Below, piece by piece: positions 7,655 through 47,974 of a stretch of DNA of 64,000 bases; position 1 is the first letter of the stretch, and the number at the start of each line of letters is the position of its first letter. The position numbers were made by a program, and so were the translations under genes. This stretch comes from Chloroflexota bacterium (GTDB lineage: Bacteria > Chloroflexota > Dehalococcoidia > UBA2979), in contig BTUI01000009.1 of assembly GCA_045863195.1 (NCBI GenBank), positions 51,951 to 115,950 of the forward strand, read 5' to 3'. The notes below the pieces were generated by a model, which was not told the DNA's origin, made no database searches, and saw only the letters and a program-made list of their open reading frames with translations.

Positions 7655-8725
7655 CTAGCCGCGGATGAAGGCCTCCACGCCATCACGGGCGTCCTCGTCC
7701 AGCATCTGGCGGGGCGGGGACTTCATCAGGTAGGCGGAAGCGTCGTACACCGGGCCACCGTGGCCGCGGTCGAGCGCGATCTTCGCGAGGCGCACCGCGT
7801 CGATGACGACACCGGCGGAGTTCGGGCTGTCCCAGACCTCGAGCTTGGTCTCGAGCGTCAGCGGGACGTTGCCGAACGTGGTGCCCTCAATGCGGATGTG
7901 GCACCACTTGCGGTCCTTCAGCCACGGCACGTAGTCGGAGGGGCCCACGTGCACGTCCGCGGCCGGCAGGTCGTATTCGATCTGGCTGGTGACCGCGGAG
8001 GTCTTGGAGATCTTCTTGGACTCCAGGCGCTCGCGCTCCAGCATGTTCATGAAGTCGGTGTTGCCGCCGAAGTTCAGCTGGTAGGTGCGGTCGATCTTCA
8101 CGCCGCGGTCCTGGAAGAGGCGGACGAGCACGCGGTGGAGGATGGTGGCGCCGACCTGCGACTTGATGTCGTCGCCGATGATCGGGAGGCCCTTCTCCTC
8201 AAAGCGGGACGCCCAGTAGTTCTCCTTGGCGATGAACACCGGGATGCAGTTGATGAAGGCACAGCCGGCCTGCAGCACCTGCTCCACGTACCACTTGGTC
8301 GCCTCTTCGGAGCCGACCGGCAGGTAGTTGATGACGACGTGGGTGTTCGTCTCCTTCAGGATCTTCACGATGTCCGCGGTCTCGCCGGGGGCCTTCGTGA
8401 TCACCTGGGAGAGGTACTTGCCGATGCCGTCGTGCGTCATGCCGCGGTGCACGGTCACGCCGGAGTTCGGGACATCCGTGAACTTCACGGTGTTGTTCTG
8501 GCCGGCGAAGATCGCCTCAGACAGGTCCTTGCCCACCTTCTCCACGTCCACGTCGAACGCGGCGGTGAAGTTGATGTCGCGGATGTGGTACTGGCCGAGC
8601 ACCGGGTGCATCAGTCCCGGGATCTCGTCGCCGGATTCGGCGTTCTTGTAGAACTCCACGCCCTGCACGAGCGATGAAGCGCAGTTCCCCACGCCGATGA
8701 TGGCGACGTTGATCTTGTCTGACAT
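7655..8725 (-). CDS. ino1: myo-inositol-1-phosphate synthase (bacterial/archaeal short type)
   Basis: [22 protein letters not shown] Rossmann start, [11 protein letters not shown] and the conserved Lys-rich catalytic region. Codon usage is noticeably less GC-biased than in neighbouring genes. Confidence 0.9.
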
Positions 8726-44305: not shown

Positions 44306-45469
44306 CTATTTCGCGGCCGCGACCGCCTTCGTGGCGGCCTCCGCGAACCCGTCCGCGCGGATGAGGTCGTTGATGCCGGACTCGTCGAGGATCTTCAGGC
44401 CCAGGTCCACGTTCGTGCCGGCCAGCCGCACCACCGTCGGCTGCGTCACGTGGCCGCCCTTGATCGCCTGCACCACGCCCTCCGCGATGATGTCGGTGCG
44501 CGCCAGGCCGCCGAAGATGTTGACCAGCACGGCCTTCACATCCGGGTCGGAGCCGATGATCCGCAGCGCGGCCACGACCGCCTCCGGGTTGTTCGCGGTG
44601 CCGATGTCCAGGAAGTTCGCCGGGTTGCCGCCCGCGAACTTGATCGCGTCCATCGTCGCCATCGCCAGGCCGGCGCCGTTCACCAGGCAGCCGATGTTGC
44701 CGTCCAGCTTCACGTAGTTCTGGATGCCGGCGTCGTGCGCCTCGAGCTCCTTCTCCGCCTCCTGCGAGCGGTCGCGGAGGGCGGCGAGCGCCTTTTGGCG
44801 GTAGTCCGCGTTGTCGTCGATGGAGAACTTGGCGTCGGCGGCCAGGATGCGGCCGTCCTTCGTCACCACCACCGGGTTGATCTCCACGATCGACCCGTCG
44901 CTCTCCAGGAACGCGCGGGCGACGCTGCCGATCAGCGCCGTGGCCGCCGCGAGGTGGTCGCCGCCGAGGCCCACGGCGTACGCGAGCTGCCGGCCCTGGA
45001 ACGGCTGGAAGCCGCACGCGGGGTCGATCCAGGTCTTGTGGATCGCCTCCGGCGTCTTCGCCGCGACCTCTTCGATGTCCATGCCGCCCTGCGCGGAAGC
45101 GATCAGCACCGGCTTGCCGGGGGAGTTGTCGATGGCGGCGGAGAGGTAGATCTCCCGCTCGATCTCGATCGCCTCTTCGACGAGGACAGAGTGGACCGGG
45201 AGGCCCTGCGGGCCGGTCTGGTGGGTGACCAGGGTCATGCCGATGATGGCGGCGGCGTGCGCCTTCGCCTCCTCCGGGGTGGCGGCCACCTTCACGCCGC
45301 CGGCCTTGCCGCGCGCGCCGGTGTGGGCCTGAGCCTTGATGACCACGCGGCCGCCCAGTTCGCGGGCGATCGCCTCCGCCTCCTCCGGGGTCGTCGCGAC
45401 GCGCCCCTTCGGCACCGGCACGCCGAAGCGGGCCAGCAGCTCCTTCGCCTGGTACTCGTGCAGTTTCAT
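44306..45469 (-). CDS. sucC: succinate--CoA ligase [ADP-forming] subunit beta
   Basis: [12 protein letters not shown].. ATP-grasp fold; 387 aa. Confidence 0.95.
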
Positions 45470-45593
45470 GACGCCTCGATCCCCTCGGGGTGCGTGTTCG
45501 CTCGGTCGCTCGGACGTGGAAGGGGCCGCCGATGGCGGCCCGGGCGATGGTACTACGGCGCAGGTTGGGGGCTAGGCGGGAGGGGCCGCGCCG

Positions 45594-46427
45594 CTACCGG
45601 GCTTTCTCAAAGACATGAAGGCTGCGCCCGAGTGGCGAGTCCTCGAGGAACCAGATGACCTCCTCGCCCTCGACGGTTCGAACGACCGCCTTAGCGAACA
45701 GTTCGTTGAACAACCCGCGAATCCGAAGCGCCGTGTCTTGGGCTCCGCTCCTGACGGGGATCGCGTCGAATGGGACGATGAAAGTGACGACGGCGGTCGT
45801 CTCATCAATGAGATACGGTTGGCCGTCCCGGTGGTTCTGTGCAGCTTCAACACGGCTTTGCAGAGTGCCGCTGCGGAATCGTCCGGCCACGTGCCGAATC
45901 GAATATCCCCCGAACCAATCCTCGACCTGGTCAAGCACCCGCTGTTCGTAGGCTGCATCGGTCTCGCCGTCGATGCGCGGGATCAGGGTATCGAGCTGCC
46001 GTGCCCCGATCTCGCCTAGGCGCTGCCGCAAGCTGTCCGTGTAAAACAGGTCGTCGAGCGCGGCGCGCAGTTGGGCTTCCCTCGTGAGGGGCAGGAGGAA
46101 CTCGAAGATCGAGACATGGCCGTACGTTCGCGGAGCGAACGAGCCGTACGGACGTCGCTTCTGGGAGGAGTGCTCGATGAACTGCTCAACGGTGACCCGA
46201 CGAAACTCTGGCAGTACTTCAACGCTTTGGCCGTGATGTCGAAGCCAACCCTGCCAGTACTTCGTGATGTTTGTGTAGGCCGTGCCCGGCTTCCACCCTG
46301 CCGCTGCGTCGATTTCCGAGATGTCGAAAGACTGGTTGGGCGTCTTCGTCTTCAGGAATTCGAACGCCTTCTCCTGTCGTTCATGTTTCCGCAAAGCGGC
46401 CCCCAATCCACCGGATATCACGTGCAT
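45594..46427 (-). CDS. hypothetical protein, low-GC orphan (about 57% GC in a roughly 70% GC background)
   Basis: Long ORF with atypical composition (GC estimated by eye from 100-nt blocks). No family recognised. A longer start at 46484 would overlap the divergent PEBP start. Confidence 0.5.
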   Translation of the reverse strand: MHVISGGLGAALRKHERQEKAFEFLKTKTPNQSFDISEIDAAAGWKPGTAYTNITKYWQGWLRHHGQSVEVLPEFRRVTVEQFIEHSSQKRRPYGSFAPRTYGHVSIFEFLLPLTREAQLRAALDDLFYTDSLRQRLGEIGARQLDTLIPRIDGETDAAYEQRVLDQVEDWFGGYSIRHVAGRFRSGTLQSRVEAAQNHRDGQPYLIDETTAVVTFIVPFDAIPVRSGAQDTALRIRGLFNELFAKAVVRTVEGEEVIWFLEDSPLGRSLHVFEKAR

Positions 46428-46471
46428 GGTACGCGGAGGTGCGTCGACCTGGGTACCGCTATCCTCACCCC

Positions 46472-47158
46472 ATGACCCACTCACACCTCCCCCGCCGCCA
46501 CCTCATCGCCGCGCTCGCCGCGCTAGCCGCGCTAGCCGCGCTCGGGCTGCTGCTCGCTGCGTGCGGGGGCGGGACGTCCGAGGCAGACCGGGACGCCGAG
46601 GCGACGCCGAGCGCGGAGGCGACCGCCGCCGAGACGGCCGCTGCGACCGTGACCGCGACGCCGGATGCGGGCGGGGCGGGGACGCCCTCGGGCGGGCCGG
46701 GCGGGATGCCGCCGGCGCCGTTCGCGGTGACCTCCGCGGCGTTCGAGCCGGGCGGGGCGATCCCGGTGGAGTTCACCTGCGACGGCGCGGACACCAGCCT
46801 GCCGCTGGAGTTCACCCGCTTCGACGCGCGCACGCAGACCCTCGCGATCATCTTCGAGGACCCGGACGCGCCGGGCGGCACCTTCGTCCACTGGACGGCG
46901 TGGAACATCCCGCCCGGCAACATCGAGGCCGGCGCGCTGCCCGCGGGCTCCGTGGAGGGCGTGAACGACACCGGCGCGACCGGCTACGCCGGCCCCTGCC
47001 CGCCGGAGGGCCAGTCCCACCGCTACATCGTCACCGCGTACGAGGTCGACACCACGATCGCCCTCGGCGAGTTCGCGATCGTCGACGAACTGCGCGCGGC
47101 GCTGGAGGGCCACATCGTCTCCGAGGCGCGGTACGAGGGCGTCTACCCGGCGCGATAG
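46472..47158 (+). CDS. PEBP-family (YbhB/YbcL) lipoprotein
   Basis: Signal peptide plus lipobox LLLAAC; ..DPDAPGGTFVHW..GPCPP..HRY.. PEBP motifs. Confidence 0.8.
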   Translation: MTHSHLPRRHLIAALAALAALAALGLLLAACGGGTSEADRDAEATPSAEATAAETAAATVTATPDAGGAGTPSGGPGGMPPAPFAVTSAAFEPGGAIPVEFTCDGADTSLPLEFTRFDARTQTLAIIFEDPDAPGGTFVHWTAWNIPPGNIEAGALPAGSVEGVNDTGATGYAGPCPPEGQSHRYIVTAYEVDTTIALGEFAIVDELRAALEGHIVSEARYEGVYPAR

Positions 47159-47197
47159 CGGCCTCGCGGCTGCCGTGGAGCCCGCTAGACTCCGCGC

Positions 47198-47974
47198 ATG
47201 ACCCACACCCGTCGCCTCCTCTTCGCATCCCTCGCCGCGCTCGGCGTGCTGCTCGCCGCCTGTGGCGGGGGCGAGGACGCCGAGGGCATCACCGCCGAGG
47301 AGAACCTGGCGATCCGCAATACCATCGACGTGACCGCGTGGGCGCTGATGCTCGTGCTCCCGGACGCGGCGACGGTGGAGGCGCACACGGGCATCGCGCC
47401 CGCGGCGTTCCACGTCCTGGAGTACGACGCCGGCGGACGCCTGCTCGCCGCCGCCGTGGACATCGAGGGCGTGCCAGTCGCCACGTTCGACCTCCACCTG
47501 GCCGCCGGCGCCGCCGCAGAGCGGGCGGAGGGGGCCATGACGCTCGGCCGGTTCAGCGTCGCCACCACCGTGCACGCCGGCGAGATGCCGGAGGCGGCCG
47601 CGGGCGCGCTCAACCTCGCCGCGCTCGTGAACGCGCAGCGCATCATCGACATCAACTACACGCCGCCCGCCACGCCGGCCTCGCTGGACGTGGGCCTCAA
47701 CCTCCTCGACGCGTTCGAGGCGGCCGGGCGCGAGTGGCAGACGGCGCTCGCGGCCGGGGACGCCTCCCACGAGCCGCGCGTCCTGGGCACGTGCGAGGAG
47801 ACCCGCCAGTTCGAGCGCGGCCTCTGGATGTTCATCGCGCGGCCGTGCCTGGAGTACGGGCGCGGCGATGCCCTCCTCTCCGCCGGCGACACCGAGGCCG
47901 CCCTGGTCGCCGTCCGGGAGGCGGTGGAGCGCACCGTGGCGGTCAGCGCCTCGATGCGCGCGGCCCTCGACTAG
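47198..47974 (+). CDS. hypothetical lipoprotein
   Basis: MTHTRRLLFASLAALGVLLAACGGG lipobox. Its signal peptide is almost identical to that of the PEBP gene. Confidence 0.55.
   Translation: MTHTRRLLFASLAALGVLLAACGGGEDAEGITAEENLAIRNTIDVTAWALMLVLPDAATVEAHTGIAPAAFHVLEYDAGGRLLAAAVDIEGVPVATFDLHLAAGAAAERAEGAMTLGRFSVATTVHAGEMPEAAAGALNLAALVNAQRIIDINYTPPATPASLDVGLNLLDAFEAAGREWQTALAAGDASHEPRVLGTCEETRQFERGLWMFIARPCLEYGRGDALLSAGDTEAALVAVREAVERTVAVSASMRAALD

Follow-up and report, generated by a model that had tools for sequence, protein, structure and literature searches.

Gene X beside sucC in a Chloroflexota contig is a long-resident, solo member of an unannotated protein family of Dam-centred modules

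The DNA analysed here (the window) comprises 64,000 nucleotides of contig BTUI01000009.1 from a Chloroflexota bacterium of the Dehalococcoidia. It contains an open reading frame (ORF) of 277 amino acids with a low guanine plus cytosine (GC) content, located between sucC and a gene for a PEBP lipoprotein and referred to below as gene X; all coordinates are those of the window. Gene X is a long-resident, selected and solo member of an unannotated protein family that belongs to Dam-centred restriction-modification (R-M) and defence modules. It is located on the reverse strand at 45594..46427 in the ORF list (ATG at 46427, stop codon at 45594-45596) and encodes a protein of an uncharacterised family. 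A GTG at 46484 would provide an alternative start, giving a polypeptide of 296 amino acids; an independent gene call on a 7.7-kb public contig yielded a 100% identical protein, likewise of 277 amino acids. The ratio of non-synonymous to synonymous substitution rates against orthologs was 0.13-0.17 and all 20 family-invariant residues are retained in the window copy, in agreement with X being a real, functional gene under purifying selection.

Searches with the single X sequence gave no match in Pfam, NCBIfam, PADLOC, PHROGs or PDB sequences, the last of which were also searched by profile. The preliminary description of this gene, based on the sequence alone, had been unable to assign it to a family, and this holds for all of these curated libraries. 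The sole match in the PDB profile search, to glucose-6-phosphate isomerase (E 0.006, over a helical stretch), was judged spurious. The label 'orphan' given in the same description is contradicted by 101 homologs in a word-indexed protein search, mostly of 270-310 amino acids and all labelled 'hypothetical', and by 792 cluster representatives in an exhaustive profile search, 220 of which were detected at E <= 1e-30. Among the best 150 of the 792 profile matches the architecture was uniform, with no remote domain fusions of X. Scanning one genome per species revealed approximately 82 carriers in 185,579 species, spanning Chloroflexota, Acidobacteriota, Myxococcota, Verrucomicrobiota, Armatimonadota, Spirochaetota, Gammaproteobacteria and others. 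Nearly all of the carriers are metagenome-assembled genomes (MAGs); X is also carried by Colwellia psychrerythraea ND2E. An alignment of 81 X-family sequences contained 20 invariant columns, and a metagenome scan with the single X protein returned two weak partial matches only. The X family is rare and patchily distributed over many phyla.

At about 80 loci the complete set of ORFs lying up to 6 kb from X was clustered, followed by searches with hidden Markov models (HMMs); the counts given here rest on the 63 loci in which X is flanked by 2.5 kb or more on each side. When these neighbourhoods were checked for defence genes with PADLOC and HMMs, as the preliminary description had proposed, an adenine methyltransferase was identified within 2.5 kb of X in 43 loci (68%). 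It was of the Dam family (Pfam MethyltransfD12) in 36 loci, an assignment supported by NCBIfam TIGR00571 (266 bits, with the cutoff at 115), and of the N6_N4 type in 14. The nearest Dam gene shared the strand of X in 29 of the 36 Dam loci. Two further proteins each recurred in 26 loci, one of ~133 amino acids matching Pfam PDDEXK_11 and containing a conserved D...E-x-K core, the other a conserved, basic-tailed protein of ~100 amino acids, designated Y. The usual gene orders are Dam-PDDEXK_11-X-Y and Dam-X-Y, with Y directly 3' of X in L024, L026, L036, L040, L053, L055, L060, L063, L064, L067 and other loci. Y has the motif W..NGY.DV..LIDE......G.K.RRNWW..LAG...G.P..V.G..FPVL..AQ followed by an Arg/Lys-rich tail, and had no match in Pfam, NCBIfam or PADLOC. 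It occurs as a free-standing protein, on the C-terminus of X (P0089-92) or on either end of Dam (L059, L070, L073), and these Y-X and Y-Dam fusions, a Rosetta-stone pattern, argue that X, Y and Dam work together. An apparent arrangement in which two Dam genes flank X was rejected, as the HMM coordinates showed the downstream match to cover a C-terminal extension only, that is, Y.

X is also found beside complete pairs of methyltransferase and restriction enzyme. The pair in L001 includes a BglII/BamHI-like nuclease, and in L020, L047, L083 and L034 X adjoins a 435-amino-acid DUF6996-DUF6997-DUF7226 protein that matches the PADLOC model of a Type II restriction endonuclease (2.9e-49), a match that gives these three domains a likely function. 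The presence of X beside complete pairs with other nucleases argues that it is an accessory of Dam-type modules and not a restriction enzyme. As a separate observation, an ORF with a PCHRVV motif, which we take to be typical of O6-alkylguanine-DNA alkyltransferase (Ogt/MGMT), was located 0.1-2.5 kb from X in 11 loci (L021, L027, L031, L090 and seven others), its recurrence partly reflecting local synteny among related Dehalococcoidia MAGs.

Solo X genes were found at 17 of the 63 loci (27%). A neighbour-joining tree indicated that they arose several times within the methyltransferase-linked family, and placed the window copy in a clade with L010, L013, L014 and the Myxococcota locus L015. The sister of this clade was L019, which has the gene content X-Dam-N6_N4-BglII-like, and other members of the clade adjoin Type I R-M genes, a recombinase or transposases. 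That the ancestral home of the X family was a Dam-type adenine-methyltransferase module, and that the window copy has lost all of its partners, is well supported. The preliminary description had regarded the gene as the possible remnant of a defence module or selfish element; for a family tied to R-M clusters the former is a fair description, with the reservation that no defence gene, methyltransferase or mobile-element scar was found next to X in the window.

The 277-amino-acid ORF was correctly placed between sucC and the PEBP gene, with divergent starts 44 nucleotides apart, according to both the ORF list and Pfam. On the 3' side of X and on the same strand, sucC (44306..45469, reverse strand) encodes the succinyl-CoA synthetase beta subunit (Pfam ATP-grasp_2, 2.3e-73, and Ligase_CoA). 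The divergent gene (46472..47158, forward strand) encodes a PEBP-family lipoprotein (Pfam PBP PF01161, 4.3e-32) with the lipobox LLAAC seen in its translation; the ORF coordinates leave a spacer of 44 nucleotides (46428..46471) between the two starts, in which a promoter scan gave no match to a sigma-70-like promoter. The X proteins P0004 (67% identical) and P0015 (61-63%) are likewise encoded directly upstream of sucC-sucD, in the same orientation as in the window, and a tblastn search with sucC added L014, the X of which is 50% identical. The syntenic set thus consists of four genomes: the window, L010, L008/L013 (L008 being identical with L013) and L014. Pairwise identities across this set were concordant, at 86/76/74/74/73/71% for sucC and 67/63/50/60/49/56% for X with the same pairs in order, from which X appears to co-diverge with sucC at about double the rate. 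The dS values of X and sucC (2.0 against 0.5) are not comparable because sucC has a GC content at third codon positions (GC3) of ~0.96. Allele replacement at the sucC site was considered and is unsupported, given the concordance of these identities.

The spacer of 124 nucleotides between X and sucC (45470..45593, reverse strand) retains its landmarks in an alignment of the window, L010 and L008, and likewise in L014. The landmarks common to the syntenic loci are CCTAGCCC, GCTA[C/A]CAT, a G-C hairpin and GGATCGAGGCG ahead of the sucC start. The GC-rich hairpin, GGGCCGCC-AUC-GGCGGCCC (45523..45541, reverse strand), has eight G-C pairs and no U-tract and is conserved in all four genomes, with an identical stem and a variable loop in the window, L010 and L008 and the counterpart GGGCCGC-CCA-GCGGCCC in L014. 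The spacer had no Rfam match, the hairpin was not flagged by a simple terminator scan, and neither sigma-70 promoter nor canonical terminator signals were found at the X locus; the conserved hairpin is either a terminator of X or an element of the 5' untranslated region or leader of sucC(D). The shared landmarks argue for a single orthologous junction, not four independent insertions. The borders of X in the window contain no repeats, transfer RNA (tRNA) targets, mobile genes or insertion scars. On the opposite flank, the PEBP lipoprotein gene and the following ORF of 258 amino acids, which had no Pfam match (together 46472-47974), are absent from the matching position in L010 and L008; the PEBP side of X is variable and the sucCD side is fixed. 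Comparison of these sequences indicates that X has long been inherited vertically at sucCD and is not a recent insertion. The preliminary description had taken the gene as probably acquired by horizontal transfer, and a recent acquisition is contradicted by the orthologs upstream of sucC-sucD in L010, L008/L013 and L014 with their concordant divergence and conserved spacer; these same-locus orthologs, also of low GC content, are what it had itself named as evidence for an ancient resident. As an observation on one of these loci, X in the Dehalococcoidia MAG of L008 (= L013) has an in-frame stop straight after MKRHER (~7940-8000) and was called as a fragment of 216 amino acids; the cause is an error of sequencing or assembly, or else the winged helix described below is beginning to be lost.

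The GC content of X was 60.4% compared with 71.7% for the whole window; the contrast of about 57% to 70% estimated previously was therefore real, with the figure for the gene slightly low. X is the lowest-GC stretch of 800 nucleotides in the 64 kb, ~4.6 standard deviations (SD) below the mean (mean 0.717, SD 0.024), and 300-nucleotide windows within it ranged from 58 to 64%. Its GC3 of 0.737 deviates from values of 0.927-0.974 in sucC, the PEBP gene, the 258-amino-acid ORF, a Metallophos_2 gene and an NmrA-like gene, so that the proposed sliding-window and codon check bears out the impression of a compositionally foreign-looking gene. Another low-GC gene of the window used as a control (7655-8725, ino1-like) had a GC3 of 0.952, leaving X alone atypical at synonymous sites among the low-GC genes of the window. 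The control gene, on the reverse strand, is the second-lowest GC patch of the window (GC 0.64, GC3 0.95) and encodes a protein of 356 amino acids, the N-terminus of which presumably resembles inositol-1-phosphate synthase; in composition this gene is native, its amino-acid content accounting for the low GC. Amino-acid usage of X was raised for Phe (6.1 versus 3.1%), Lys (3.2 versus 1.4%), Tyr (2.9 versus 1.9%) and Gln (5.4 versus 1.4%) and halved for Ala (8.7 versus 18.1%). The enrichment in Phe, Tyr and Lys reported earlier was thus confirmed, while that in Ile was not (5.4 versus 5.0%).

A low GC content is found wherever X was examined. GC3 in the four syntenic copies was 0.59-0.74 compared with 0.94-0.97 in the adjacent sucC, and X was 5-13 GC points below its flanks at all nine loci compared, plus L014, in hosts of 62-73% GC. 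Low GC at every locus examined makes it a family trait and not a time-stamp of transfer. Selection for poor codons and low expression of a potentially harmful protein may keep GC3 low.

The structure of X was predicted as a single chain, in which two domains can be distinguished. The N-terminal domain, X-N (residues 1-97; 46137..46427, reverse strand), is a predicted winged helix-turn-helix with two linker helices, comprising helices at residues 16-27, 37-43 and 49-56, a strand at 33-35 and a wing of beta structure at 62-71; F34, K56 and Q89 are invariant, W45 and T52 near-invariant, and conservation of the recognition helix extends across phyla. The C-terminal domain, X-C (residues 98-277; 45597..46136, reverse strand), is a predicted PII-like/ferredoxin-like alpha+beta domain with a four-helix insert, and the model suggests a PII-like ferredoxin fold order of b1-a1-b2-b3-a2-b4. 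Its conserved residues are E109, E117, R121, D125, D131, R136, G174-Y175-S176, G182-R183-[F/Y]184, Y205, D208-E209-T210-T211, G254-E255, W259 and E262. No nuclease family or fold was matched by X-C in Pfam or Foldseek, and Foldseek matches in BFVD were unannotated small phage proteins.

Both domains are also used independently. An HMM of X-N matched further proteins within X islands (E 1e-7 to 1e-16), in which X-N is fused to TIR_2 (PADLOC PDC-S66/ThsB-like) or to a Ser/Thr kinase (PD-T4-6/mad6-like). These fusion proteins are encoded 1-3 kb from X in Dam/N6_N4-methyltransferase islands of Pyrinomonadaceae and other MAGs, on the reverse strand in L043 (11332-12231), L055 (11412-12383) and L060 (8022-8828) and on the forward strand in L060 (9748-10785), L083 (11952-12863) and L063 (2356-2733). 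Among fused proteins X-C was seen in X alone, and it is free-standing (~205 amino acids, with all invariant residues) in Spirochaetota (L076, L078, L079, L082), with neither a winged helix nor a methyltransferase nearby. A conserved ORF of 122 amino acids was also observed 0-5 kb from the stand-alone X-C in 4/4 of these Spirochaetota loci. The occurrence of X-N on TIR and kinase proteins and of X-C on its own argues for X-N as a module for targeting or sensing that several proteins share, and for X-C as an autonomous unit in the effector position.

A close parallel to this design is provided by winged-helix Type IV enzymes. In prokaryotes, Gm6ATC is read by winged helices to which one of several interchangeable nuclease domains is attached, and 87% of these enzymes have no methyltransferase nearby (PMC11037411). 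DpnI, HhiV4I, FcyTI and Ahi29725I (PMC11037411) share with X the combination of a winged helix and an interchangeable effector; X-N, like the Type IV winged helices, is found on three different C-terminal domains, and solo X resembles their stand-alone organisation. However, their effectors are PD-(D/E)XK, HNH, GIY-YIG and PLD nucleases, whereas X-C has no nuclease fold, a methyltransferase is near X at 68% of its loci, and X-N gave no sequence match to DpnI in the PDB profile search. X clusters also resemble DpnII/MboI-type cassettes, in which a Dam-family methyltransferase (sometimes with an N6_N4 enzyme) and a PD-(D/E)xK nuclease form tight same-strand operons, but carry X and Y, which are absent from described Dam cassettes, and the uncharacterised PDDEXK_11 as the nuclease. 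In some X islands, moreover, a kinase resembling PD-T4-6/mad6 and a TIR protein resembling ThsB accompany adenine methyltransferases, as in MADS, Pgl/BREX type 2 and Thoeris ThsB, although the ATPase, PglZ and other hallmarks of MADS/BREX-type systems were not seen next to X. PADLOC 2.0 contains no model for X (0 families at E <= 1), Y or PDDEXK_11, whereas the neighbouring methyltransferase, REase_II, TIR and kinase proteins do match.

X-C can be compared with lyases of S-adenosylmethionine (SAM), which cleave SAM to MTA and homoserine lactone. These are PII-like trimers with interfacial active sites; the few residues conserved among them are a G-x-Y that precedes the T-loop, a catalytic Glu where the T-loop ends and a Gln or Glu in the B-loop (PMC7877911, PMC12255297), and SAMase subfamilies are barely similar to each other in sequence (PMC7877911). 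X-C is predicted to have the PII-like fold in common with the phage enzymes T3 SAMase and Svi3-3 (PDB 6ZM9) and the CRISPR-associated SAM-AMP lyase (PDB 9GAB), and contains candidate counterparts of the SAM lyase positions, with G182-R183-[F/Y]184 ending b2, an invariant D208-E209-T-T starting b3 and an invariant G254-E255 in the a-b4 loop of the model, a positional match that we regard as suggestive. X differs from SAM lyases in being fused to a winged helix, in being bacterial and chromosomal instead of phage-borne, and in being encoded beside a methyltransferase, whereas phage SAM lyases are used against one. Proteins of the PII/GlnB type (GlnK, CutA, SbtB, CPII) match X at the level of the fold, with all PDB E-values >0.001 and no Pfam P-II match; X has other conserved residues, carries the helical insert, is fused to a DNA-binding domain and is found in a genomic context of DNA methylation in place of nitrogen or carbon metabolism. 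In the predicted model X-C resembles both SAM lyases and PII-like proteins and is not filed as a member of either. The product name of the phage T3 gene 0.3 SAMase itself (L093 901-1359, NC_003298), 'SAM-dependent methyltransferase', is misleading.

Taken as a whole, the explanation we favour, at somewhat less than an even chance, is that X is a solo effector or modulator derived from a Dam-based module and consists of a winged-helix DNA reader and a PII-like SAM-type domain. The evolutionary and contextual parts of this explanation are well supported, while its biochemical part is, by itself, doubtful. The winged helix would bind DNA, probably at a short conserved target, for example GATC or the state of its adenine methylation, for which the winged helices of DpnI and HhiV4I may serve as a model by analogy; reading of GATC or its methylation would explain why the recognition helix is conserved across phyla. 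X-C would assemble as a PII-like trimer, and a small molecule containing adenosine, either SAM or one of its derivatives, would be bound at the subunit interfaces or cleaved there in the manner of SAM lyases, with E209 (T-loop end), E255 (B-loop) and G182-x-[F/Y]184 as proposed site residues. With Y, X would modulate or complement a Dam-based self/non-self system as its effector or modulator arm; the window copy may act as a stand-alone sentinel or have been retained for a derived role, and its poor codon and GC3 match would fit a gene held at low expression.

Several observations weigh against this explanation. The ferredoxin/PII-like fold is very common, and the Foldseek matches in PDB were generic PII-like ones with none at E <= 0.001. 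There was no match of X to the SAM lyase family PF23780 in Pfam (E <= 1) or to any PHROG, and hhalign of X-C against an alignment of more than 40 T3-type SAMases gave a probability of 0.4%, so that membership of that family is not claimed. SAM lyases have ~130-150 amino acids, compared with ~180 in X-C with its four-helix insert and long T-loop; the B-loop residue of X is an invariant E255 and not Gln, in a correspondence read from secondary-structure positions rather than superposition. An effector activated by Gm6ATC would be at odds with a neighbouring Dam; what the winged helix reads would therefore have to be unmethylated DNA or another target. X was not found in phage, plasmid or viral-contig collections. 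HMM searches of the 64-kb window detected no Dam (D12), N6_N4 methyltransferase, PDDEXK_11, Y or second X-N protein, and GATC is not depleted there (observed/expected 0.92), giving no sign of GATC restriction; with no partners and undepleted GATC, the window itself shows no methylation-linked role for this X. As a further observation on the window, AGCT is strongly under-represented, with 37 sites observed where a second-order model predicts 136 (ratio 0.27), and more so than CTAG (0.46); the scarcity of AGCT could reflect a past AluI-type restriction system in this organism.

A ligand-responsive transcription factor, combining a winged helix with a PII-like sensor in the logic of Lrp/AsnC or IclR regulators, is an unlikely alternative, yet one to be taken seriously. 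In R-M modules such a factor would act as a controller (C-protein-like) timing methyltransferase and nuclease expression, and in the lineage of the window it would have been co-opted for sucCD or the divergent PEBP gene, perhaps sensing ATP or 2-oxoglutarate, both of which PII proteins bind at trimer interfaces (PMC7877911). The domain architecture fits, X and sucCD remain linked in four genomes and are separated by a spacer containing a conserved element, and the association with methyltransferases is independent of which nuclease is present, a pattern to be expected for a regulator. IclR structures were found by Foldseek, weakly (probability 0.15-0.41, TM score ~0.2), and no Pfam or NCBIfam match placed X in Lrp/AsnC or IclR. 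R-M controller proteins have ~80-100 amino acids and an Xre-type helix-turn-helix, are encoded ahead of the restriction gene and act through C-box operators, whereas X is three times larger, with an enzyme-like domain and no HTH_3 or HTH_XRE match in Pfam, and neither the 44-nucleotide nor the 124-nucleotide spacer contains a palindromic operator. Moreover, X-C exists without a DNA-binding domain with its invariant residues all kept, and X-N on TIR and kinase effectors is better described as a targeting module that is not specific to regulators. A set of ~20 invariant residues, charged for the most part, points to catalysis or to an extended binding site. Conservation of the recognition helix spans phyla, whereas in regulators with differing operators this part usually varies, and no link to genes of the tricarboxylic acid cycle was found in the family outside the small clade of the window.

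It is improbable that X is a restriction endonuclease with a new nuclease fold, or the DNA-recognition subunit of such an enzyme, and has the Dam-type methyltransferase as its cognate partner; a solo X would then be tolerated thanks to a matching methyltransferase encoded elsewhere in the genome. About ten Dam-X(-Y) loci lack another recognisable nuclease, X is often in the position of the restriction gene beside the methyltransferase gene and on its strand, and the protein has many invariant acidic residues together with a winged-helix DNA-binding domain. Such a domain is present in the restriction enzyme FokI. It is present also in DpnI (PMC11037411). However, X occurs beside three other families of restriction endonuclease, and this role was downgraded on that account. 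Recent horizontal transfer of one foreign gene into a housekeeping locus, for which the strongly deviant GC and GC3 and the patchy family, with a Myxococcota member among transposases in the solo clade, might speak, is highly improbable given the occupation of the same site in four genomes with sucC 71-86% identical, concordant divergence and a conserved junction, borders free of repeats, tRNA and mobile genes, and an X that is low in GC relative to its host at every locus examined.

Going beyond the explanation favoured above, X, Y, Dam and PDDEXK_11 might together constitute an undescribed methylation-based immune module, in which a winged helix that reads the methylation state of GATC is coupled to a bacterial effector resembling SAM lyases, the TIR and kinase proteins being alternatives to it and the window copy a domesticated stand-alone form; we consider this a long shot. 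Unmethylated or foreign DNA would be sensed and SAM destroyed or sequestered, leaving incoming DNA unprotected by the host methyltransferase. If true, this would be a host-side use of a trick that phages turn against R-M.

A single gene has thus exposed an unannotated protein family of ~800 clusters, a recurrent Dam-centred module with two uncharacterised components, X and Y, and a winged-helix module common to X and to TIR and kinase effectors. The persistence of low GC in X calls for care when recent transfer is inferred from GC content, as deviant GC and GC3 are no clock, and raises the question why some defence-derived genes resist amelioration. Should X-C bind or cleave SAM, the SAM lyases with which phages counter restriction would have a first relative that is both cellular and linked to a methyltransferase. 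The locus in the window is a quiet one; the family that it revealed, with a cultured carrier in C. psychrerythraea ND2E, is worth experimental follow-up.

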